Shown piece after piece: positions 11,122-46,007 of a stretch of 46,007 nucleotides of DNA. This DNA is from Methylophilaceae bacterium (GTDB lineage Bacteria; Pseudomonadota; Gammaproteobacteria; Burkholderiales; Methylophilaceae): the NCBI GenBank assembly GCA_025362115.1, contig JANYIK010000072.1, positions 1 through 46,007 of the forward strand, read 5' to 3'. Numbering within the stretch: the stretch's first letter is position 1; each line of letters opens with the position of its first letter. A model generated the notes under the pieces. It saw only the letters and a program-made list of their open reading frames with translations. It did not search any database and had not been told where the DNA came from. Made by a program: the position numbers and the translations under genes.

Positions 11122-12054
11122 ATGGTGTTCACTGGCAACGCCAATCCCACGCTGGCAGCCGAGGTGGTATCACACCTTGGCATCCCTTTAGGCAAGGCCA
11201 CCGTAGGCCGTTTTAGCGACGGCGAGGTGATGATAGAAATATTGGAAAACGTGCGCGGTAAAGACGTGTTCGTGCTGCAATCCACCTGTGCCCCCAACAA
11301 CGACACGCTGATGGAAGTGCTGGTGATGGTAGACGCACTGCGCCGCTCCTCTGCTGGACGTATCACCGCCGCCATTCCTTATCTTGGTTATGCACGGCAA
11401 GACCGCCGTCCACGTTCAGCGCGCGTGGCGATTACCGCCAAAGTGGTGGCGAATATGCTGACCTCGGTAGGTGTGGACAGATTGTTAACGATGGATTTGC
11501 ACTCTGACCAGATTCAGGGCTTTTTTGATATTCCGGTAGATAACATTTATGCGTCATCGGTGTTGCTGGAAGATGTTACTAAACGCAATTACCCCGATGT
11601 GGTCGTGGTGTCACCCGATGTCGGCGGCGTAGTACGCGCAAGGGCACTAGCCAAGCAACTGAGTTCTGACTTGGCGATTATAGACAAGCGTCGCCCCAAG
11701 CCCAACGAAGCCAAGGTGATGAACATCATTGGTGAAGTCGAAGGTCGCACTTGTATCATCATGGATGACATGGTGGACACCGCCAATACACTGTGCGAAG
11801 CGGCGTTAGCACTGAAAGAACAGGGAGCCGCCAAGGTAGTGGCCTACTGTACCCATCCGGTTTTATCCGGGAAAGCGATTGAGCGTGTGAATAACTCCGC
11901 GCTGGATGAATTGGTCGTGACCAACACCATTCCGCTGAATAATGATGCTGCTGGTTGCAAAAAAATACGCCAGCTTTCCGTGGGTAAGTTGATGGCGGAA
12001 ACCATACGCCGCATTAGCCACGAGGATTCGGTCAGCTCGTTATTTATCGAGTAA
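11122..12054 (+). CDS. prs: Ribose-phosphate pyrophosphokinase
   Basis: The product starts [12 protein letters not shown] and carries the PRPP motif [15 protein letters not shown] lies 5 nt upstream of the ATG at 11122. The track's GTG at 11104 is probably too early. Confidence 0.95.
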
Positions 12055-12145: not shown

Positions 12146-12781
12146 ATGCAAATCGAAATTAACGCCAAATCGCGCGAACTAAAGGGCACCGGAGCGAGCC
12201 GCCGCCTACGTCGTGCTGGCAACGTACCAGGCATCGTCTATGGTGCCGGCAAAGATGCCGTGACTATTGAACTGAGCCACAAAGAGTTGTTCCTGCAATT
12301 CCGCCACGAAGCTTTTCACGCTTCTATTCTCTCGCTGAATCTGGATGGCAAGGCAGAACAAGTGCTGCTGCGCGATTATCAAATGCACCCGGTGCGTACT
12401 GAAATCGCCCATATTGACTTTCAACGCGTGAGCCAAACCGAAAAGATCCATGTGAAAGTACCGTTCCACTTCACTAACGTAGAAACCTCACCAGGGGTCA
12501 AATTGAATGGCGGCATCGTCATGCACATCATGACCGAAGCCGAAGTGAGCTGCTTGCCTAAAGACCTGCCAGAATTCGTCGAGGTAGACATGGGTGAGAT
12601 TGACGTCGGACATTCTGTGCATTTGGCGCAAATCAAGCTACCCAAGGGCGTTGAGTTTGTGAAGCTGGTGCACGGTGATGATGCCGCTGTAGCCTCCATC
12701 GCCAAACCACGTGGCGCATTGATAGAGGAAGAAGAAGCGGCAGCTCCAGTCGTTGAAGCACCAGTCGCAGCAGCCGAGTAA
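12146..12781 (+). CDS. rplY: 50S ribosomal protein L25 / general stress protein Ctc
   Basis: 211 aa with RRLRRAGNVPGIVYG at the N-terminus and an acidic Ala/Glu-rich tail. It sits in the prs-rplY-pth order. Confidence 0.92.
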   Translation: MQIEINAKSRELKGTGASRRLRRAGNVPGIVYGAGKDAVTIELSHKELFLQFRHEAFHASILSLNLDGKAEQVLLRDYQMHPVRTEIAHIDFQRVSQTEKIHVKVPFHFTNVETSPGVKLNGGIVMHIMTEAEVSCLPKDLPEFVEVDMGEIDVGHSVHLAQIKLPKGVEFVKLVHGDDAAVASIAKPRGALIEEEEAAAPVVEAPVAAAE

Positions 12782-12804
12782 TCCGCTAGCAGGCTTGTTA
12801 CAAT

Positions 12805-12843
12805 ACGCGCGTTCTGGGCAACCGGGACGCGCGTTTTTATTTT
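12805..12843 (+). terminator. Stem-loop plus T-run between rplY and pth (partial terminator)
   Basis: The self-complementary octamer ACGCGCGT occurs at 12805-12812 and 12827-12834, followed by TTTTTATTTT. pth starts 10 nt later, so readthrough is likely. Confidence 0.55.
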
Positions 12844-12852
12844 GAGGTCGCT

Positions 12853-13425
12853 ATGGGCATAGAACTGATTGTGGGACTGGGCAATCCAGGCACTGAATAC
12901 GAAGCCACCCGCCACAACGCTGGCTTTTGGTGGGTAGAGTCCGTCGCTCGTGCCAATAACGTACAACTCTCGCAGGAAAGCAAATTTTTTGGCCGCGTGG
13001 CTCGTCTTAAATCGCCTGAAGCTTGGCTTCTTACCCCGACCACCTTTATGAACGCCAGCGGACAAGCGGTGGGTGCATTGGCGCGGTTTTATCGCATCGC
13101 GCCAGAAAGCATCCTGGTCGTCCACGACGAATTGGATTTGGAGGCCGGCATCGCTAAGCTGAAAAAAGGCGGTGGGAACGGCGGCCACAATGGCTTGAAA
13201 GATATTGCCGCACACTTAGGCAGCACCGATTTCTGGCGTTTGCGACTGGGCATAGGTCACCCCGGTGATGCCAAAGACGTGATCAATTACGTCCTACACA
13301 AGCCCTCGCGCGAAGAATTTAGTTTAATAGACTCCGCCATAAAAAATACTACCGGCTTGTTGCCACTGCTGCTAGCAGGTGACTTTGAAACGGCTATGCT
13401 CAAGCTACATACCAAGGTAAAATAA
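12853..13425 (+). CDS. pth: Peptidyl-tRNA hydrolase
   Basis: [21 protein letters not shown] and [13 protein letters not shown] are present. Confidence 0.95.
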
Positions 13426-13453
13426 GCCCAACTTCTCAATTCAGGACACCATC

Positions 13454-13948
13454 ATGAGCGACCAAGACCAACCACACAGCGGCCTAAGCCTTGCAGAGAA
13501 ACTCCCCATTGCTTTCGTCATCATCGTCATTGTCGCGGCGCTCTATCACCTCACCTTCGTGGCAGGGCCGATAGAAAACAAGCCCGCAGCCAACGATGAT
13601 GCCTCTGTTACTGCTCGCATCAAACCCGTTGCCGAGGTGGTCATCGCCGCGGCTCCCGCCGCCGCCGGAGCCGCCCTCAGTGGCGAACAAATCGTCACTC
13701 AGGGCTGTAGTGCTTGCCACGGCACTGGCGCACTGGGCTCACCAAAAATAGGTGACGCTGCGGCTTGGGCACCCCGCATTGCGCAAGGGTACGAGACTTT
13801 GGTCAAACATGCTATTGAGGGTATCCGCTCTATGCCCGCGCGTGGTGGAAACGCTGCTTTGAGTGATGCCGAAGTGGCTGACGCGGTGGCCTATATGACC
13901 AACAAAGCTGGCGCAAATTTCAAAGCTCCCGCAGCCAAAGCGAAATAA
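13454..13948 (+). CDS. Membrane-anchored cytochrome c5-type protein
   Basis: It has an N-terminal TM helix, an Ala-rich linker, a CSACH heme-binding motif and a downstream MPARGG Met ligand region. Confidence 0.8.
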   Translation: MSDQDQPHSGLSLAEKLPIAFVIIVIVAALYHLTFVAGPIENKPAANDDASVTARIKPVAEVVIAAAPAAAGAALSGEQIVTQGCSACHGTGALGSPKIGDAAAWAPRIAQGYETLVKHAIEGIRSMPARGGNAALSDAEVADAVAYMTNKAGANFKAPAAKAK

Positions 13949-37398: not shown

Positions 37399-39303
37399 TT
37401 AAACGTGTTTCAACCTATCGTAAATTTCCATCATGCGCGGTAAAGCGCGCAACATGGCGGCGATGACCTCGGGGTCAAAATGCTTGCCAGCGTCTTCCTG
37501 CATAGCTTCCAGCGCCTTTTCCACCGGCCAGGCATCTTTGTAAGGACGCTTGGAGGTCAGCGCATCGAATACGTCTGCCGCAGCGATAATGCGGGCTGAT
37601 AGCGGTATATCCTGGCCTTTCAAGCCTGCGGGATAGCCGCTGCCGTCAAATTTTTCATGGTGACACTCGGCGATTTCGATACCCACTTGAAACACTGTGT
37701 GTCCCAGCGCTTGCACTTGCGCCTCACTCTTACGCAGCACCTCGCCGCCTATCACCGGATGGCGCTCCATCTCTTTGCGTTCTATAGGGTCTAGCCGCGC
37801 GGGTTTTAGCAATACGCTATCGGCGATACCCACCTTGCCGATGTCGTGCATGGGAGCAAAATTGAACACATCACGCACATAAGCCGGAGTAATCTGCGCC
37901 ATATAAATTCCCTCCTTGCCTAGCTCTTCGGCCACCAAGGCCGAATAGAGCGCCATACGCACCAAGTGATCGCCCGTTTCAGGATCACGACTTTCAGCGA
38001 GCTTTGCCAGGCCTTCTACGGCAGCCACCACCAGGCTTTCCATCACCACGGTTTTTTCCAGCACGTGTGAAATAGTCGCGGCAATGTTATTCAAAAATTC
38101 CACATGCTCTGACTTATACCCCTCTTGCTTACTGGCGAACACCATCACCGCTTGATGTTCACCACTCAGTACAGGCATATACACCGCCGAGTGCATACCG
38201 GCATTAGCCAGAACGCATTCCAAGAGATGCGGCGAATTAAGCGGCGTGAGTGTAAAGGCAATTGGCGCAGAGGCTTGCATCAGATGCGCCATAACGCCTT
38301 GCTTGGCATCAAAACTAACACCATCTTTCAATGCTCTGGTGTGTGAACTGTAATGCCGCTCCAATGTTAGGCGGCCACGATCGGGTGTAGGGTAAAAAAC
38401 GCCCACCCAATCCAGCGGAACAAACCCTTGAAATTCATCGTGGACAAAACGCAGCATCTCGTCCAGTTTGTTGCCTTGGTTGATGCGATCTGTCAGCCGG
38501 AAAATACCGTTGATACGCTGCGTCAACAAGTTAAACGCTTGTGTCATCTGGCCAATTTCGCTAACGCCATGCACGGTCACCTGATGACTAAAATCGCCCT
38601 GTGCCACACGCGAAAAACCTTCAATCGTATACTTGAGCGGCTTTATAACAGCACGCTGCACGATCAACATCACCAATATCACCAACACCAAGCCTAGGCC
38701 GCCAGCCACCCACTGAAACAAGCGAATTTGGTCTAATTTCTTTTCCATCATGCGTTGAAAGGCTCCGCTCAGCCGATCTGACGATTTGGTCAATAGTGCG
38801 CCGTGCGTCTCAATATATTCGGCAGCCCAAGTTAAACGTGGTTCGGTAAGATTCGCTCCGAGCTTGTCTTGTAGACCCTTATGAAAATGCATCCAGTCAC
38901 TCATGGTTTGGTGCAACTGAGCGTTGAGTTCACTATCGAAATTACACTTGATGACTGAGGTATGATCGCCTACCAGTTCTGCGTCTATCTGGCGGCTTTC
39001 AAGTGAGCGGATGATTTTGTCGTAGAGTAAGGTTTGTTTTTGTAAGTCTTGCCAATAAGTCGCCAAGTCACGCGCGTATTTATCATCGTCATCTGGCGCG
39101 ACCTTCGCATAGTGGTGCGCCTGCTCCATCATGGTCTGGCTCAGTACGCGCAACTGCCCGGCCAAATTGAGAATGAGGTAGTCGTGCTTGCGCAGATGAA
39201 GTGCGTACAGGGTATAACCCAGCGTACTCACCATCAGCAAAAAAATGGCTAAAATCGCGGCGCCGATTTGGGTGCGTAAGGAATTTAGCCTGAGACTTAT
39301 CAT
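37399..39303 (-). CDS. Membrane sensor HD-GYP phosphodiesterase (periplasmic sensor, HAMP, GAF-like and HD-GYP parts)
   Basis: 634 aa. Two TM segments bracket a sensor region of about 170 aa. The C-terminus carries HDIGKVGI and HHEKFDGSGYPAGL. The ATG lies 5 nt after the DoxX stop. Confidence 0.88.
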   Translation of the reverse strand: MISLRLNSLRTQIGAAILAIFLLMVSTLGYTLYALHLRKHDYLILNLAGQLRVLSQTMMEQAHHYAKVAPDDDDKYARDLATYWQDLQKQTLLYDKIIRSLESRQIDAELVGDHTSVIKCNFDSELNAQLHQTMSDWMHFHKGLQDKLGANLTEPRLTWAAEYIETHGALLTKSSDRLSGAFQRMMEKKLDQIRLFQWVAGGLGLVLVILVMLIVQRAVIKPLKYTIEGFSRVAQGDFSHQVTVHGVSEIGQMTQAFNLLTQRINGIFRLTDRINQGNKLDEMLRFVHDEFQGFVPLDWVGVFYPTPDRGRLTLERHYSSHTRALKDGVSFDAKQGVMAHLMQASAPIAFTLTPLNSPHLLECVLANAGMHSAVYMPVLSGEHQAVMVFASKQEGYKSEHVEFLNNIAATISHVLEKTVVMESLVVAAVEGLAKLAESRDPETGDHLVRMALYSALVAEELGKEGIYMAQITPAYVRDVFNFAPMHDIGKVGIADSVLLKPARLDPIERKEMERHPVIGGEVLRKSEAQVQALGHTVFQVGIEIAECHHEKFDGSGYPAGLKGQDIPLSARIIAAADVFDALTSKRPYKDAWPVEKALEAMQEDAGKHFDPEVIAAMLRALPRMMEIYDRLKHV

Positions 39304-39874: not shown

Positions 39875-40630
39875 CTACAAGGCTCTAAGCACGCCGATAA
39901 TGACTTGTTCCAACCTTAGATTTTCCAGTATCTCCAAACCGCTGTTGATCACCACGTCCGGCTTGGGATGCTGCAACTCTTGTGCAATTTGCGTCAAAGC
40001 CTGCAAGCCGGTTGATGTTCCCTCTGCCAGCAAGGCCAACAGACGTGCGCTCACCGGATTCAACACGATGAACTTCACTTCATCATCGGCGCGTCTGAAA
40101 GCCACAATCTGCGTGGGTTGGCTGTCAGGTTGCGTTGGTTTGTAGCGCTTGCCAATACGCTGCACTGCGTAAGGGTAACTCAGCAGAGCCAGCGCTGGCG
40201 TCAATACCGGACAAGATGTCAGTAAATCGCCTTGTGGATCAACATGCTCGGGCATTACCGCGTCCGAAACCGCCAGCGACAACTCTATCCATTCGTAGTG
40301 AGTCAAGCTGTGCAGGAACGGCGGATAGTCGGTTTGCGGCTCTGCTTCTAGCCAGCGCAAAAATTCTTCCGGTATCTGGCGAAATATCGGCGTGGCGCAC
40401 TGATGCTGCACAAAAAAGCGTCTTACCAAGCGCGTCCAGCGCCGCACACCCAGCACTTCTCGAGTCAGCGGAAAGCAAGACTCTACTAATCCTTGCAGAT
40501 TGTTGAACACAATCTCGTTATACACCGCCATACGCCGCACGCTCACTCCAGCGGGACGTGGCGCAACTTTGGGGTTGCGGATATGGCGCGTGAATTCTGT
40601 CTGGTATTGCTGAAAAGCCGGCGCGTTCAC
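39875..40630 (-). CDS. DUF2063-family partner protein of the MNIO enzyme (HvfC/BufC-like)
   Basis: 251 aa. The N-terminal [15 protein letters not shown]...[12 protein letters not shown] pattern is typical of DUF2063. Its start overlaps the DUF692 stop by 4 nt. Confidence 0.8.
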
Positions 40631-41490
40631 GCTGCGCCCTTCTTTTGTGGCGTAACACTATGGCGCTGCTGCAATAGGGCAATGTGATTGATTTCCTGCT
40701 CCAACTCGGCAAGCGGTGGCATATTGGTGTCGCGCTCCAGCAAGGTGGGCGCTACGCCAAATAGCCTATACGTCTCTTCCAGCAAGTCCCACACGGGGTC
40801 TATCACCGGCGCACCGTGGGTATCAATCACCAAATCCTCTGCCTCGCGCAAATGGCCTGCGGTGTGGATGTAAGCGATACGCTCCCCGGGCAAGCTACGC
40901 AGAAACTCCTGCGGATCGAAGCTAAAATTGACGCTGTTGACGTAGATATTATTCACGTCCAGATGCAAATTGCAGTCTGCCTCTTCCAGCACGGCGCGGA
41001 TAAAGGTCAGCTCATCCATCTCAGCGATGGGCGCGGCAACGTAGTAAGAAGAGTTTTCTACCGCGATGCGGCGTTCCAGAATGTCCTGGGTGCGGCGTAT
41101 GCGCGCAGCGACGTGTTTGACTGCCTCCTCAGTAAAAGGAATGGGCAGCAAGTCATACAAATAGCCATTGGCGCTGCAATAGCTCAGGTGTTCGGTATAA
41201 AGCGGGATACGATACTGCTCAAGAAAACCTTTGACGCGCTGCAAAAACACCTCATTCAGCGGGTCCGGCCCACCCAAAGACAACGATAAACCGTGGGCGA
41301 CGATGGGATAGCGTTCAGCAAACCAAGCAAGCTGGCGCGCGCGCGCGCCGCCTATGCCTATCCAGTTTTCTGGCGCGATTTCAAAAAAATCTATGGCGGA
41401 GGGGGGGGTGATAGGATCTCTGGCCTGAAGTTGGGGCATTAACTCCCGCTTCAGGCCGAGTCCTGCGCCAAAGAGTGCCTTGGCATTCAT
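40627..41490 (-). CDS. DUF692 multinuclear non-heme iron oxidase (MNIO; MbnB/HvfB/BufB family)
   Basis: 287 aa with [59 protein letters not shown] and LERD. This is the TIM-barrel DUF692 motif series. Confidence 0.88.
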
Positions 41491-41496
41491 TGCAAA

Positions 41497-41838
41497 TTAC
41501 TTCTTGTCGGCGTGGCAGCTACCTTCTTTGGCTTTTTTGTCTGCGCTGCAAGTCGCTTCTTTGGCTTTCATTTCAGCGCTGCAATTACCTTCTTTCGCAG
41601 CCTTCATTTCTGCACTACAAGTCGCTTCTTTGGCTTTTTCTTCCATGGCTTTTTTCTTGGCAGCGCTACACTTGCCGGTGCCACATTTGCCATCCTTTGC
41701 GTCGGCCACTTGATAGGCTTTGGTCAAAGCGTTCATTGCGAATGGGTTTTGATCGGCGTTGACCACTGGCGACATCGCCAGAGAGGCTGCGAAGGTACCA
41801 CCGAGAACGATGGCGAGGGTTTTCTTTTGTGCGTTCAT
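41497..41838 (-). CDS. Secreted 6-Cys repeat peptide, putative RiPP precursor (HvfA-like)
   Basis: 113 aa. AAGGAG precedes the ATG. The signal peptide ends VNA, followed by DQNPFAMNALTKAYQVADA. Then come DGKCG, TGKCS and four Lys/Glu-rich units: KEATCSAEMKA, KEGNCSAEMKA, KEATCSADKKA and KEGSCHADKK. The stop lies 6 nt before the DUF692 start. Confidence 0.8.
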   Translation of the reverse strand: MNAQKKTLAIVLGGTFAASLAMSPVVNADQNPFAMNALTKAYQVADAKDGKCGTGKCSAAKKKAMEEKAKEATCSAEMKAAKEGNCSAEMKAKEATCSADKKAKEGSCHADKK

Positions 41839-41877: not shown

Positions 41878-42120
41878 TTAATGTTGATGCAGTTTCTCGC
41901 GGATGGTATCTCTTGCTGAATCAGACAACTTGACGCTTTCGTCTTGCTCCTCACGACGCAATTGCTGTTGCAACGCCGTTCGTAACAAACGCAACTGTGC
42001 GACAAACTGGCTACACGGATCGCAAATACTCAGATGCAACCACATGGCAAAACGTTCCCGCCGGGTCAAGGGGCGATCCAACGCTTGAGAGGCCAAACGA
42101 CTCGCTTGCTTGCAGCTCAT
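41878..42120 (-). CDS. Soluble zinc-binding (ZAS-type) anti-sigma factor
   Basis: 80 aa counted from the ATG at 42120, which has GGAG 6 nt upstream. An alternative ATG is at 42126. The ligand pattern is C3-x25-H29-x3-C33-x2-C36, and there is no TM segment. It lies directly downstream of the ECF sigma gene. Confidence 0.75.
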   Translation of the reverse strand: MSCKQASRLASQALDRPLTRRERFAMWLHLSICDPCSQFVAQLRLLRTALQQQLRREEQDESVKLSDSARDTIREKLHQH

Positions 42121-42155: not shown

Positions 42156-42776
42156 TCACATGCCGCTCCGCTCCGCGCTGGTTCTTTTCAACCAATGCAT
42201 CTCCATACATTTACGTAGACCCATGCGAGAGCGGTACAGCATCACCCATGCATTCGTCGCCGAGATTTCCAGTTCCTTACAAATTGTTTCGTTATCTTCC
42301 TCTTCTATTTCACGCAGCAAAAACAAGCGCGCTAAATTCTTGGGTAGGCGATCCAGGCAGCCTTGTAATATCTGCCAAAACTCCTGTTGCTCCATCAGCC
42401 TCGCCGGGTCGCCCAGTGAAGAAGGTTTCTCAGTCCAATGGTTAGAGTCATCAAAAAATTCATCCATACCGGGCTCACTCATTTCTTCTGGCGGGTCTTC
42501 ATCATATAAAGGCTGTTCGCGCTGAGCGCGGCGCATCAAATCAATAATCTTATGCTTGAGAATGCCAGTGAGCCAGGTGCGCGCAGAGGATTTTCCAGTA
42601 AAACTATCGCTACTTTTTATCGCTGCCAGCAAGGTTTCCTGCACCGCATCTTCCGCCAAATGTTGGTCACGCAACCGCGTCAGTGCAAAGCGATAGAGGT
42701 AATCGCCATGTTCGTTAAGCCAGTCGTTCGGATTGGGGGTATCGGTTTGATTCAGTATTTTCTCCATATGCCGCAT
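42156..42776 (-). CDS. ECF-type sigma-70 family RNA polymerase sigma factor
   Basis: Region 2 LYRFALTRLRDQHLAEDAVQETLL and region 4 ETICKELEISATNAWVMLYRSR are present, with a long acidic linker between them. Confidence 0.88.
   Translation of the reverse strand: MRHMEKILNQTDTPNPNDWLNEHGDYLYRFALTRLRDQHLAEDAVQETLLAAIKSSDSFTGKSSARTWLTGILKHKIIDLMRRAQREQPLYDEDPPEEMSEPGMDEFFDDSNHWTEKPSSLGDPARLMEQQEFWQILQGCLDRLPKNLARLFLLREIEEEDNETICKELEISATNAWVMLYRSRMGLRKCMEMHWLKRTSAERSGM
42251..42281 (-). promoter_or_regulatory. Candidate ECF-type promoter, copy 2, inside the sigma gene 3' part
   Basis: The minus strand reads TGTAAG-GAACTGGAAATCTCGGC-GACGAATG. It has the same 6-N17-8 architecture as copies at 42877 and 45817. 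It lies about 130 nt upstream of the anti-sigma start. Confidence 0.5.
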
Positions 42777-42907: not shown

Positions 42908-42986
42908 GCTGTCATAAACAAATTTATGATGTTCACAAATTTGCAACCTTTACTATTTATGCTTCAACTTTTTAGGGAGATTTATC

Positions 42987-43454
42987 ATGGCAATTCAATT
43001 TAAGCAAACCGCAATCGCAATCGGCGTAGCACTGGCGGCTTTTTCAACTGTTGCATCCGCTGATGCAATGATAGGCAGTGGTGGCTACAGCAAACTGCAC
43101 ACCATGGAAATGATGAAAATGATCGATGCTGATGGTAACCACATGGTAACCAAAGACGAATTCATGAATTATTACGGTGAGATTTTCGATGCACTGGATA
43201 CTGACAAAGACGGTTCGATTGACGCTAAGGAATGGGTTGGCACCAAGGGTGATAACAAGATCAGCATCGCTACCGGTGGCTATAGTTCACAACTGCGTAC
43301 CATGAAGATGATGAAAGCAATGGACACCAATGGTGACCACAAGGTAACCAAAGATGAGTTCATCAAGTTCCATGAGGCTATCTTCAATACGATGTCCAAA
43401 GGCGGTACCGAAGTTGATGGTAAAGGCTGGTTGGCTCGCACTACTGGCAACTAA
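42987..43454 (+). CDS. Secreted EF-hand calcium-binding protein, Met-rich, internally duplicated
   Basis: The signal peptide ends ASA. Three canonical 12-residue EF loops are DADGNHMVTKDE, DTDKDGSIDAKE and DTNGDHKVTKDE. Each half starts GGYS..L.TM.MMK. Confidence 0.85.
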   Translation: MAIQFKQTAIAIGVALAAFSTVASADAMIGSGGYSKLHTMEMMKMIDADGNHMVTKDEFMNYYGEIFDALDTDKDGSIDAKEWVGTKGDNKISIATGGYSSQLRTMKMMKAMDTNGDHKVTKDEFIKFHEAIFNTMSKGGTEVDGKGWLARTTGN

Positions 43455-43471
43455 GTTTTTAGCTTGACGTA

Positions 43472-43500
43472 AAAAAGGCCGACTATGTCGGCCTTTTTTG
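43472..43500. terminator. Bidirectional rho-independent terminator
   Basis: An A6 run, stem GGCCGAC/GTCGGCC with loop TAT, and a T6 run. It sits between the convergent EF-hand gene and the cluster 2 DUF2063 gene. Confidence 0.85.
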
Positions 43501-43579: not shown

Positions 43580-44359
43580 CTATACAATAGCGATAACCAT
43601 ACCATTGGAAATCCAATTATTCAGATAATTAATAAAAGCGACAGGTGCTTCTTCTGTGTGCCATTGCGTTAGCAGTTCACACATATTAGCAAAATCATCA
43701 CCATGCACGATGGCCTGTATGAGCGCATACTCGTCCGCAGTCATTGAGCGAAATTCGGACAGGCGATCCAGGCCACGCCATAGCAACCAATAGCTCTCGG
43801 GTTGCGAATTGGCAGCGCCAGGACTTACACCTGCTCGCAAGCATTGCCAACTCTCAACGCTATTCCATTCTGCCGCAAATAATTGCACACTGGGATGTAA
43901 GCGCAAGCGCATTTCTGGCCAATTCTCGGCAGGAAGCATGCGTATATCCTCAATACTGATACTGACCGCATCTAAGGCATCAAATACGTCCAGTAACAAT
44001 CTTTCAAAGTTGGCGAATTCTGCCAATATTGGGTGTGCTGAGAACGGTGCGTTGTTCCGTAGAAAATCGGGTAAGTGGCTGGTGTAGTCGCGTAAGGAAG
44101 TATAGCGCGAAGGATGCTTAACGACGTATCCGTCCACCATCGCTTCAAACAACTCATCGCCCAAGTAAAGTCCTAACAACTCATGATTGGTGTCTATGGC
44201 CTCACGAAAACGCATTTTGTAGGCGTTATTATAGATTTGTAGCTTGGTGTCTACCGACGATTTGCCTTTAACCGCCACATGAGGTGCCAGTATATCGGGG
44301 TCTCCAGTGAGCAAGTAATCCAAAAAGGCTTGCTCTAGTGCTTGTAGTGCTTTAGGCAT
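43580..44359 (-). CDS. DUF2063-family partner protein (BufC-like), cluster 2
   Basis: 259 aa with LQIYNNAYKMRFREAI near the N-terminus. Its start overlaps the DUF692 stop by 8 nt. Confidence 0.75.
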   Translation of the reverse strand: MPKALQALEQAFLDYLLTGDPDILAPHVAVKGKSSVDTKLQIYNNAYKMRFREAIDTNHELLGLYLGDELFEAMVDGYVVKHPSRYTSLRDYTSHLPDFLRNNAPFSAHPILAEFANFERLLLDVFDALDAVSISIEDIRMLPAENWPEMRLRLHPSVQLFAAEWNSVESWQCLRAGVSPGAANSQPESYWLLWRGLDRLSEFRSMTADEYALIQAIVHGDDFANMCELLTQWHTEEAPVAFINYLNNWISNGMVIAIV

Positions 44360-45218
44360 GAAGTACCAAGTTTTCTGGTTTGGGTACTTCGTCTAGTTCT
44401 AGTGTTTGTAGGAATAACTGCCGCGCTTGAGCAAGCTCCGCATGGAGTTCTTCAAAAACAGGAATGTTGCCATCGCGTTCTATCATGGTGCTGACCGCAC
44501 CAAAGTGCATTAAAGCTTTACGATAAAGCGACCAAACATCGTCACATACATTGTGGTCGTGAGTGTCAATCACATAATCGCCATAGTCAGAATGTCCCGC
44601 CAGATGAAATTGCCTGACCCTTTTGGGATCAATTGCTTCAAGGTATTGCTCAGCGCAAAAACCATGATTACGCGAACTGACGTAGATATTGTTGATGTCC
44701 AACAGAATAAAGCAATCCGCTTGGTTTGCGACTTCACTTAAAAACTCTACCTCGCTCATATCCGCATGATTGAAGTCCAAATAACTAGAAGGATTTTCTA
44801 GTAATATTTGACGACCAAGAAAGTCTTGCACTTGTTGCACGCGGCTTACTACATGAGCCAATGCTTCTTGCGTATAGGGCAGAGGAAGCAGATCATGACT
44901 ATTGATGTGGTTTACCGTTGTCCAGCATAGGTGATCAGAAATCCACTCGGGTTCAATCTCTGCTACTAAAGCACGGAGTTGTTTGAGGTAATCAGTATTC
45001 AGCGGATCGGTTGAACCAATTGAGAGCGAAACTCCGTGCATCACTATGGGGTAGTGTTCCCGCACTTGATGTAGATAGTATTTCGGTTTTCCACCGCCAA
45101 CGAAGTAGTTTTCAGTAAGAATTTCAAACCAGTCTACTAATGGACGCTCTTGGATGACATAGTCGTAATGCGGCGTACGCAAGCCAAGGCCAAAACCTAA
45201 AAAGTGTGAGTCATGCAT
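44352..45218 (-). CDS. DUF692 multinuclear non-heme iron oxidase (MNIO), cluster 2
   Basis: 288 aa with GFGLGLRTPHY, WFEILTENY, MHGVSLSIGS, ISDHLCW, LLENPSSY, LLDINNIYVSS, HLAGH, IDTHD and IERD. Confidence 0.88.
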   Translation of the reverse strand: MHDSHFLGFGLGLRTPHYDYVIQERPLVDWFEILTENYFVGGGKPKYYLHQVREHYPIVMHGVSLSIGSTDPLNTDYLKQLRALVAEIEPEWISDHLCWTTVNHINSHDLLPLPYTQEALAHVVSRVQQVQDFLGRQILLENPSSYLDFNHADMSEVEFLSEVANQADCFILLDINNIYVSSRNHGFCAEQYLEAIDPKRVRQFHLAGHSDYGDYVIDTHDHNVCDDVWSLYRKALMHFGAVSTMIERDGNIPVFEELHAELAQARQLFLQTLELDEVPKPENLVLHA

Positions 45219-45231
45219 ATAAAAACCTAGA

Positions 45232-45258
45232 TGCGTCGGAACATAAAATTCCGACGCA
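45232..45258 (-). promoter_or_regulatory. Intercistronic stem-loop between precursor 2 and its MNIO gene
   Basis: A 10-bp stem, TGCGTCGGAA/TTCCGACGCA, closes a 7-nt loop. On the transcribed strand it is followed by ATCTAGGTTTTTAT and then the ATG at 45218. Confidence 0.6.
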
Positions 45259-45275
45259 ACGTACTGAATGGCAGA

Positions 45276-45722
45276 TTATACTTTTCCGCCAAGATCGTCA
45301 CAGGCTTTTTGTGGAACGCTGACAAAGCCGTGACCTTTGCAACTGCCCATACCAGCACAAGCGTTGTCTGCCGTCTTGCAATCGTTGTGACCCTTGCAAG
45401 AATTCACGCCAGTGCACTGTTTAAGATCAGCCTTGGCAACACTGCCCCAATAACCATCTTTGATTGATCCACCCATTTGACCACAGGCTTTGCTCGGCAC
45501 GGCAACGAATCCTTGACCTTTACAGCTGGCCATGCCAGCACAAGCATTATTCGCAGTTTTGCAGTCATTATGCCCTTTACATTGATTGAGACCAGAGCAA
45601 TGAATGAGATTGGTAGAGTCATCACTGCCAGCGAACGCACTAGAAGCCGTCGACATGAGACCTGCAGCTGCAAGAGCAAGAGCGACACCAGCGTGTTTTC
45701 CAGATTTTTTAAGTAGTTGCAT
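45276..45722 (-). CDS. Secreted 12-Cys peptide, putative RiPP precursor (bufferin BufA2-like 6/12-Cys type)
   Basis: The ATG at 45722 has AAGGA 7 nt upstream. The signal peptide ends AFA. Two homologous 6-Cys modules follow: CSGLNQCKGHNDCKTANNACAGMASCKGQGFVAVPSKAC and CTGVNSCKGHNDCKTADNACAGMGSCKGHGFVSVPQKAC. Confidence 0.85.
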   Translation of the reverse strand: MQLLKKSGKHAGVALALAAAGLMSTASSAFAGSDDSTNLIHCSGLNQCKGHNDCKTANNACAGMASCKGQGFVAVPSKACGQMGGSIKDGYWGSVAKADLKQCTGVNSCKGHNDCKTADNACAGMGSCKGHGFVSVPQKACDDLGGKV

Positions 45723-45763
45723 AGCCAAATCCTTTCAATATGAGTAAGAGAGACGAATAGAAA

Positions 45764-45782
45764 TTGAAGACCTTGCCTTCAA
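45764..45782. promoter_or_regulatory. Inverted repeat TTGAAG-N7-CTTCAA in the precursor 2 leader
   Basis: A perfect 6-bp inverted repeat, extendable to about 8 bp as an RNA hairpin. It lies between the candidate promoter (45787-45817) and the start codon (45722). Confidence 0.45.
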
Positions 45783-45786
45783 CTTT

Positions 45787-45817
45787 CATTAGTCGCAAAT
45801 TGCCTAGAGAACTTACA
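45787..45817 (-). promoter_or_regulatory. Candidate ECF-type promoter, copy 3, upstream of the 12-Cys precursor
   Basis: The minus strand reads TGTAAG-TTCTCTAGGCAATTTGC-GACTAATG, about 65 nt upstream of the ATG at 45722. The upstream flank is AT-rich. Confidence 0.5.
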
Positions 45818-45915
45818 TCGGTTTGGAAATTTATTTAGATCAAAGTCGGCTATGCCGATTTTTTTAGGGACTTATATACTTAACTTCCTAGGAGTGGAAA
45901 ATGTGGTTCGATACA

Positions 45916-45998
45916 TTCTCCGTTCGTCCCCGTATCAAGTACGGGGCAGGCTCTGAGTAAGCGGCGAAGCCGCTATATCGAAGGATACGAACGGAGAA
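45916..45998. repeat. Nested-hairpin REP/MITE-like element at the window edge
   Basis: A 12-bp outer inverted repeat, TTCTCCGTTCGT/ACGAACGGAGAA, encloses two hairpins. These are CCCCGTA/TACGGGG (45928-45946) and AGCGGC/GCCGCT (45960-45974). Confidence 0.55.
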
Positions 45999-46007
45999 CA
46001 CTCACCA

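Follow-up and report, generated by a model that had tools for sequence, protein, structure and literature searches.

The 46,007-nt stretch of DNA analysed here (the window) is from a Methylophilaceae bacterium (assembly GCA_025362115.1, contig JANYIK010000072.1, positions 1-46,007 of the forward strand) and carries near its end a three-gene minus-strand unit that very probably represents an intact Buf2-type bufferin operon (captophorin, Cys-Lys group) with a precursor of the double-domain, 12-Cys form. The genes of this unit were as follows.

45276-45722, minus strand: bufA2, precursor, 148 aa, with Sec signal peptide and 12 Cys
44352-45218, minus strand: bufB2, MNIO (DUF692) bufferin maturase, 288 aa
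43580-44359, minus strand: bufC2, DUF2063 / PME-type-1 partner, 259 aa

The start of bufC2 overlapped the stop of bufB2 by exactly 8 nt (44352-44359), and the window ended 285 nt upstream of bufA2. The unit was taken to consist of three genes because the genes upstream of it in the nearest relative, a metagenome-assembled genome (MAG) designated P.bin.42 (locus L007), were rnfDGE, nth and those of a FIST-domain protein and DUF1841, all of them housekeeping genes. In agreement with a first-pass annotation of the sequence, a 148-aa secreted precursor with 12 Cys was found, with the motif CxGxNxCKGxNDCKTAxNACAGMxSCKGxGF...KAC in both of its modules, together with a DUF692 enzyme and a DUF2063 partner gene overlapping it by 8 nt. 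Neither a DoxX nor a sigma gene was present within the unit, which the same annotation had pointed out by contrast with a second cluster nearby; gene content bore this out, although not as a peculiarity of the cluster, as Buf2 clusters normally have neither.

Profile searches, which the first-pass annotation had proposed as a check, gave matches for all three proteins. Thus, BufA2 matched NF050166 with 138.6 bits (cut-off 60, E=5.7e-41) over two stretches that corresponded to two domains, BufB2 matched both Pfam PF05114 (MbnB_TglH_ChrH, E=4.8e-112) and NF050167 (MNIO_BufB, 388 bits, cut-off 310, E=1.8e-116) and BufC2 matched PF09836 (DUF2063) over residues 8-100 with 61.6 bits (cut-off 27.2, E=9.1e-17).

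The bufA2 reading frame began with an ATG at 45722, preceded at a distance of 7 nt by an AGGA ribosome-binding site; an alternative TTG start at 45728 was ruled out, as its spacing from a ribosome-binding site was unusable. Residues 1-31 (45630-45722) were identified by inspection as a Sec signal peptide, composed of a basic n-region, an Ala-, Leu- and Val-rich h-region of approximately 20 residues and a cleavage site between AFA and G, and in an alignment of 36 BufA2 homologues, the matching position was occupied by a type-I site in some and by a lipobox (the signal of a lipoprotein) in others. The core of 117 aa contained two 6-Cys modules with 68% identity in protein and 67% in DNA sequence. 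Cys occurred at positions 42, 48, 54, 61, 67 and 80 and again at 103, 109, 115, 122, 128 and 141, so that a spacing of 6-6-7-6-13 was present twice, with CK at three of the four central Cys in each module, and all 12 Cys were invariant among the 36 homologues. More than 1,500 homologues of BufA2 were found in databases, the best of which were 12-Cys proteins of about 150 aa with the NCBI name 'BufA2 family periplasmic bufferin-type metallophore'. A search of solved structures with the BufA2 sequence returned nothing usable. An AlphaFold2 model of moderate confidence (predicted local distance difference test, pLDDT, 67.7) consisted of a strand, a low-confidence Cys loop, a strand and a helix, repeated twice; in both modules, a strand contained the first Cys and a helix the last, as has been described for the disulfide of bufferins.

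The Buf2 precursor of Caulobacter vibrioides, which carries six Cys behind a Sec signal peptide, is modified in vivo: each of the four central Cys shows a shift of -4 Da, the two outer Cys stay unmodified and are probably joined by a disulfide, and the product has an absorbance near 305 nm (PMC11626156). Because this characterised Buf2 is modified only at the four central Cys of its 6-Cys domain, with the outer two forming a disulfide, conversion would be expected for 8 of the 12 Cys of the present protein. By this analogy, thiooxazoles are predicted at C48, C54, C61, C67, C109, C115, C122 and C128 and disulfides between C42 and C80 and between C103 and C141, for an expected mass shift of approximately -36.3 Da. 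The conversion of Cys to thiooxazoles put forward in the first-pass annotation was retained for these eight residues but not for all 12.

The class of the enzyme was indicated by differences in score between related models. BufB2 fell below the HvfB cut-off (270 versus 360 bits) while the DUF692 enzyme of the neighbouring cluster gave the reverse pattern, and its score against the MbnB model was 75 bits (cut-off 325). The protein could be aligned to the DUF692 structure PDB 3BWW, to ApyH and to MbnB. Residues H61, H96, E141, D174, N177, H205, D218, H220, E247 and D249 were invariant across the 80 related loci described below; in alignment with MbnB, these ten positions correspond to its iron ligands and its catalytic Asp. 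The full motif series earlier ascribed to the enzyme was accordingly recovered, both in the family matches and in the conserved ligand and base positions. [quoted passage not shown] BufC2 thus appears to be a divergent partner in which a DUF2063 domain at the N-terminus is followed by an RRE-like (NGO1945_C) domain that is recognisable at the profile level only.

Gene order and residues were examined in 80 related loci. A genome scan with BufB2 placed the window in Methylophilaceae, with L007 as the nearest relative (90% identity for BufB2, 95% for BufA2 and 92% for FlhF) and identical in gene order across the whole region. The order bufA2-bufB2-bufC2 was kept in approximately 70 of the 80 loci; precursors with 12-13 Cys were concentrated among the nearest BufB2 relatives (L007-L029) while those with 6 Cys dominated the more distant ones. 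Assignment of the precursor to the 6/12-Cys BufA2 class, which the first-pass annotation had made, was upheld by this gene order, by scores above the cut-offs of curated models and by published descriptions (PMC11626156, PMC12452194). In locus L040 (Methylotenera), bufA2B2C2 was followed directly by sigma, anti-sigma and hvfABC genes on a single strand, and synteny of the two clusters was conserved in L007 and, in rearranged form, in L040. All three genes were under purifying selection relative to L007, as dN/dS (the ratio of nonsynonymous to synonymous substitution rates) was 0.05 for bufA2, 0.12 for bufB2 and 0.12 for bufC2. The BufA2 core was identical to that of L007 at 116 of 117 positions, and the signal peptide accounted for six of the seven residues that differed between the two precursors. 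G+C content was 45-46% over 42-46 kb as opposed to 50-55% in most of the window, and the best homologues of BufA2 and BufB2 outside Methylophilaceae were from marine Gammaproteobacteria (60-73% identity); together, these findings may reflect an old lateral acquisition of the buf2 operon.

The features noted in connection with expression of the operon are listed below, where ECF stands for extracytoplasmic function and ZAS for zinc-associated anti-sigma.

45789-45817, minus strand: ECF-type promoter, TGTAAG-N17-GACTAA, with the -10 element approximately 60 nt upstream of the bufA2 start codon
42877-42905, plus strand: second exact copy of TGTAAG-N17-GACTAA, approximately 80 nt upstream of an EF-hand gene and conserved in the equivalent place in L007
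42156-42776, minus strand: ECF sigma factor gene, candidate regulator, TIGR02943 209 bits (cut-off 162), Sigma70_r2 and r4_2 domains
41878-42120, minus strand: small cytoplasmic ZAS anti-sigma, about 80 aa from ATG 42120, NF052368 64 bits (cut-off 50), zf-HC2
45232-45258, minus strand: hairpin between bufA2 and bufB2, 11-bp stem followed by a T-rich tract, folding free energy (dG) -18.7 kcal/mol, z = -4.2
43471-43499, both strands: bidirectional intrinsic terminator, AAAAAAGGCCGAC-ATA-GTCGGCCTTTTTT, 13-bp stem, spacer z = -4.7, conserved in L007

The motif TGTAAG-N17-GACTAA occurred exactly twice in the window, both times in the correct orientation and 60-80 nt upstream of a start codon. When the regions upstream of bufA2 from five Methylophilaceae were aligned, the only invariant islands were TGT(A/C)AG and, 16 nt further on, CGACTAA. 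In the 1.3 Mb of loci that were fetched, copies with at most one mismatch upstream of bufA2, EF-hand or other candidate regulon genes were limited to loci from Methylophilaceae; three one-mismatch matches were noted elsewhere (L047, L051 and L059). The promoter consensus of the MseR-controlled sigmaE of Neisseria is GTMAGBWTT-N12/13-CGTCTAAH (PMC2893595), and in an independent search of the whole window for this consensus, the single best match was the bufA2 site, with 2 mismatches (0.28 such matches expected by chance), while the site of the EF-hand gene had 3 mismatches. A scan for the sigma-70 consensus upstream of bufA2 identified no promoter, which is consistent with use of an alternative sigma factor.

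The candidate for this factor is encoded close by, with its anti-sigma directly 3' of the sigma gene. For the anti-sigma, the most likely start is ATG 42120, which has a GGAG ribosome-binding site 6 nt away; counted from this start, C3, H29, C33 and C36 form a Cys-x25-His-x3-Cys-x2-Cys array with the spacing of C4, H30, C34 and C37 in meningococcal MseR. Judged from sequence, the adjacent pair of sigmaE/MseR-like ECF sigma and ZAS anti-sigma is the most likely reader of the bufA2 promoter. The suggestion in the first-pass annotation that the two clusters share one regulator fared well in this respect, since the conserved promoter upstream of bufA2, the regulator pair and the synteny together lend it support. 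In addition to these sites, a GACCAA variant of the motif was noted at 13588-13616 (minus strand) of L008, another MAG from Methylophilaceae, upstream of a gene pair (12414-13544, minus strand) for a secreted thioredoxin-like protein (WCPTC) and a CcdA/DsbD-like membrane protein; the buf2 cluster of L008 was not accompanied by an hvf cluster in the approximately 8.5 kb that follow. The placement of this motif suggests a wider periplasmic thiol-stress regulon. Distantly related ECF sigma genes (26-28% identity) also adjoined Buf2 clusters in L042, L065, L073, L074 and L083, which are from Steroidobacteraceae, Povalibacter uvarum and a Proteobacteria MAG, mostly in divergent orientation from bufA2, and such genes may therefore be less rare beside Buf2 clusters than the published survey implies.

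Stable hairpins of unrelated sequence were present in the equivalent bufA2-bufB2 spacer of 52 of 70 Buf2 loci (median z -3.1), and this recurrence points to attenuation or stabilisation as a general means of favouring the precursor transcript. In the window, the hairpin probably acts by partial termination or by stabilising the mRNA, either of which would raise the ratio of precursor to enzyme. The terminator at 43471-43499 was common to bufC2 and the convergent EF-hand gene. Rfam searches of the bufA2 upstream region and the spacers identified no family; two sub-threshold small RNA matches were noted over the terminator and only a single tRNA elsewhere.

A structured element of about 90 nt (45915-46007, minus strand) was located upstream of the bufA2 promoter, at the very end of the window, with 13-bp terminal inverted repeats, two internal hairpins, dG of -41.8 kcal/mol, a z of -4.4 and no Rfam match. 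A related copy occurred in L007 at a different site (11680-11790), between bufC2 and the EF-hand gene, and six metagenome contigs with the buf2 operon ended approximately 150-180 nt upstream of bufA2, beside this element. The element looks like a repeat of the repetitive extragenic palindrome (REP) or miniature inverted-repeat transposable element (MITE) type.

The EF-hand gene (42987-43454, plus strand), situated between the two clusters, encoded a secreted protein of 155 aa with three clear EF loops, each of which was preceded by a Met-rich stretch (HTMEMMKM, RTMKMMKAM). Identity with lanmodulin was rejected from a score of 33.9 bits (cut-off 135) and EF loops without the characteristic Pro at position 2. 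Fusions of EF-hand domains to EGKCG precursors are known, but the report that describes them (PMC12452194) makes no mention of an EF-hand gene that is separate and co-regulated. The precursor of the other cluster (41497-41838, minus strand), a 113-aa protein with a signal peptide and 6 Cys, matched none of the Pfam and NCBIfam precursor models; in place of EGKCG repeats, it had one GKCGTGKC pair and then four copies of an approximately 11-residue repeat, KEA(T/N/S)C(S/H)A(E/D)xKA. The HvfB enzyme of this cluster (40627-41490, minus strand) had ERD-T in place of the ERD-F typical of the Lys-Cys class. A HAMP-GAF-HD-GYP-type signalling gene (37399-39303, minus strand) started 5 nt past the stop of the DoxX gene (hvfX), on the same strand, with flhF and flhG next, and this adjacency was conserved in L007. 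Co-transcription of the HD-GYP gene with the hvf operon is possible and, if true, would link the stress regulon to cyclic di-GMP signalling and motility.

These findings can be combined in the following scheme for Buf2. Transcription would proceed from the ECF-type promoter located approximately 60 nt upstream of bufA2, with predicted starts about 6-8 nt downstream of CGACTAAT, i.e., near 45780 (minus strand) for this promoter and near 42912 (plus strand) for the second copy, and the hairpin 3' of bufA2 would cause the precursor transcript to outnumber the enzyme transcripts. BufA2 would be translated with its Sec signal peptide and, prior to export, the iron-dependent oxidase BufB2, docked through the DUF2063/RRE-type BufC2, would oxidise the four central Cys of each domain to 5-thiooxazoles, eight in total. 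Following export, the outer pairs C42-C80 and C103-C141 would form one disulfide per domain, and the mature protein of about 117 residues would sequester copper in the periplasm and buffer copper stress. A broader proposal, which we advance only tentatively and judge to fall a little short of an even chance, is that in some Methylophilaceae a single sigmaE/MseR-type cytoplasmic thiol-switch regulator co-ordinates a double-domain Buf2 bufferin with eight predicted thiooxazoles, an atypical Hvf/oxazolin-like cluster and a Met-rich EF-hand protein, all encoded at one locus.

Several observations weigh against parts of this scheme. Copper buffering and thiooxazole formation are attributed to this locus by homology, as is the identity of the sigma factor that reads the promoter, and expression, the outcome of mass spectrometry and metal binding at the locus are predictions. 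The confidence of the BufA2 model (pLDDT 67.7) dropped to about 54 in the Cys-rich loops, and a fold search with the model gave no match to a solved structure. The Pfam scan of BufC2 gave no NGO1945_C match, and the score of BufC2 against the HvfC model was only 31 bits (cut-off 142); for these reasons, the partner role of BufC2 rests on profile-level homology and gene position, although a score below the HvfC equivalog cut-off is expected for a different subfamily. The residue that follows the catalytic Asp of BufB2 was Gly whereas the sequence logo of Cys-Lys MNIO enzymes in a 2026 paper highlights Asp. Gly was found at this position in 52 of 79 scorable family members and Asp in 26 loci. 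Because both residues are common in the family, this position, at which an Asp after the catalytic ERD has been reported as a determinant of Cys-Lys MNIO enzymes, was considered uninformative. With respect to regulation, a search of the region upstream of the sigma gene itself revealed no sigmaE-type promoter, so that autoregulation of the sigma factor was not supported in the present arrangement. A one-mismatch copy of the motif, TGTAAG-N17-GACGAA, was noted inside the sigma gene (42253-42281, minus strand), approximately 130 nt upstream of the anti-sigma start, and was kept in three lineages (including L007 and L040). This copy had 4 mismatches to the Neisseria consensus and was situated in conserved coding sequence; transcription of the anti-sigma and hvf genes from within the sigma gene is thus no more than possible, and the copy was regarded as uncertain because it coincides with the conserved region-4 codons for CKELEISATN, such that its conservation may reflect that of the protein.

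The same modified peptide might instead protect the periplasm against oxidative or reactive-chlorine stress (hypochlorous acid, HOCl, or chlorite) as one arm of a sigmaE/RpoE2-type thiol-stress regulon. Mutants in DUF692/DUF2063 operons of three bacteria are chlorite-sensitive (bioRxiv 10.1101/072470), the homologous ECF/ZAS systems of Neisseria and Haemophilus influenzae control MsrAB and a DoxX-containing MNIO cluster, with that of H. influenzae (RpoE2/HrsE) responsive to HOCl, and the promoter motif of L008 precedes a periplasmic thioredoxin and CcdA/DsbD-like pair. The chlorite phenotypes, however, are not tied to Buf2-type clusters, whereas evidence for copper induction, binding and protection is direct for bufferins, including Buf2: the buf2 operon of C. 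vibrioides is induced by copper via SigF and protects against copper (PMC11626156), and related captophorins bind copper (PMC13097082). An oxidant role was considered plausible, although clearly less likely than copper buffering; it is compatible with the same chemistry, and the two roles are not mutually exclusive.

Far less probable in our view is export of BufA2 in unmodified form, either as a metallothionein-like Cys/His-rich periplasmic metal binder or as a disulfide-rich structural protein, with BufB2 and BufC2 acting on another substrate such as the precursor of the Hvf-like cluster. Precursor genes without adjacent MNIO genes, some of which possibly encode proteins that are not modified, have been reported, and the locus does contain two MNIO/partner pairs and two precursors within 6.5 kb. 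The role of an unmodified protein was nevertheless judged improbable because the operon structure is conserved, with the A-B-C order and its translational coupling strictly kept, and because the enzyme scores are class-specific, with BufB2 scoring as BufB and below the HvfB cut-off; MNIO subgroups are known to track precursor class (PMC12452194, PMC13097082), and the Buf2 precursor of C. vibrioides is modified in vivo. Equally improbable is that the cluster is a recently acquired cassette, horizontally transferred and now silent or decaying. The lower G+C content, the marine gammaproteobacterial affinities of its proteins and the REP/MITE-like element that abuts the promoter region would fit such an origin, but the reading frames are intact, every catalytic residue is conserved and synteny is kept in L007 and, rearranged, in L040. 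The dN/dS values of 0.05-0.12 and a lineage-specific promoter conserved in five Methylophilaceae loci argue against a silent cassette despite the lower G+C. A Buf2 operon associated with copper buffering was preferred over these alternatives.

The cluster belongs to a family that is already described, named and present in NCBI annotation models, as the class is covered by the published work on buf2, the survey of Buf2 clusters and the captophorin paper, and it does not alter what is known of bufferins. Its value is that of a clean, fully intact 12-Cys Buf2 example from a methylotrophic betaproteobacterium, in a compact locus where a Buf2 operon, an Hvf-like operon, their probable ECF/ZAS regulator and an EF-hand protein occur within 6.5 kb, together with a promoter motif that is recognisably shared. 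Such a locus is convenient for study of the specificity of MNIO/partner pairs, of the co-regulation of both products and of copper versus thiol oxidant as the signal. Mild novelty attaches only to the regulatory link and to the EF-hand neighbour. If the link is true, a Buf2 operon would be tied to an ECF/ZAS regulon, which is unreported for Buf2 clusters in large-scale surveys, the EF-hand protein would be a new member of that regulon and copper or oxidant buffering would be joined to calcium-type metal binding in a methylotroph.

Among known systems, the buf2 operon of C. vibrioides (bufA2B2C2, CCNA_03001-02999; Leprevost et al. 2024, PMC11626156) resembled the present cluster in its precursor-MNIO-DUF2063 order and in lacking DoxX; both precursors combine a Sec signal peptide with Cys-Lys motifs in a 6-Cys domain, and control by an ECF sigma factor encoded at a second bufferin-type cluster, probable in the present case, is a further parallel. 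The two differed in the duplication of the 6-Cys domain here (12 Cys in a 117-aa core as opposed to a 61-aa core), in the candidate regulator, which is a sigmaE/MseR-like ECF factor with a small cytoplasmic ZAS anti-sigma rather than SigF with the membrane protein NrsF, in the companion cluster, which is Hvf/oxazolin-like rather than Buf1 (DUF2282), and in the host, here a betaproteobacterial methylotroph. Approximately 10% of Buf2 precursors contain 12 Cys as a duplicated domain (PMC12452194), and in the 2026 captophorin paper BufA2 represents the 'Cys-Lys' class and MNIO-PME1 clusters are described as broadly installing 5-thiooxazoles (PMC13097082). The two-domain architecture was shared with the 12-Cys precursors of marine Gammaproteobacteria (Motilimonas, Shewanella, Aliikangiella and the model of Cognaticolwellia aestuarii WP_077285100; Antoine et al. 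2025, PMC12452194), as were all 12 Cys and an invariant HC.G.N.CKGHNDCKT..NACAG..SCKG.GF motif, but identity with these proteins was only 58-73%, many of them have lipoprotein signal peptides in place of the type-I site seen here and their loci lack the TGTAAG-N17-GACTAA promoter. Methanobactin MbnABC likewise combines an MNIO-family enzyme of equal iron-ligand set with Cys-derived heterocycles and a copper-binding product, but differs in its leader peptide, which is not a Sec signal, in MbnC, which is not a DUF2063 protein, in its oxazolone-thioamide chemistry and in its product, a small secreted chalkophore. With regard to regulation, the closest parallels were the sigmaE-MseR operon of Neisseria (NMB2140-2145, gonophorin) and RpoE2-HrsE/hvf of H. 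influenzae (oxazolin), in which an ECF sigma factor and a small cytoplasmic ZAS anti-sigma are linked to an MNIO-DUF2063-DoxX cluster. The likeness to the Neisseria system rests on these features, on a promoter consensus that resembles the bufA2 promoter and on identical Cys...HxxxCxxC spacing of the anti-sigma, whereas both of the known regulons have been described for Lys-Cys (EGKCG) precursors and MsrAB as opposed to the Buf2 operon that the present locus would add.

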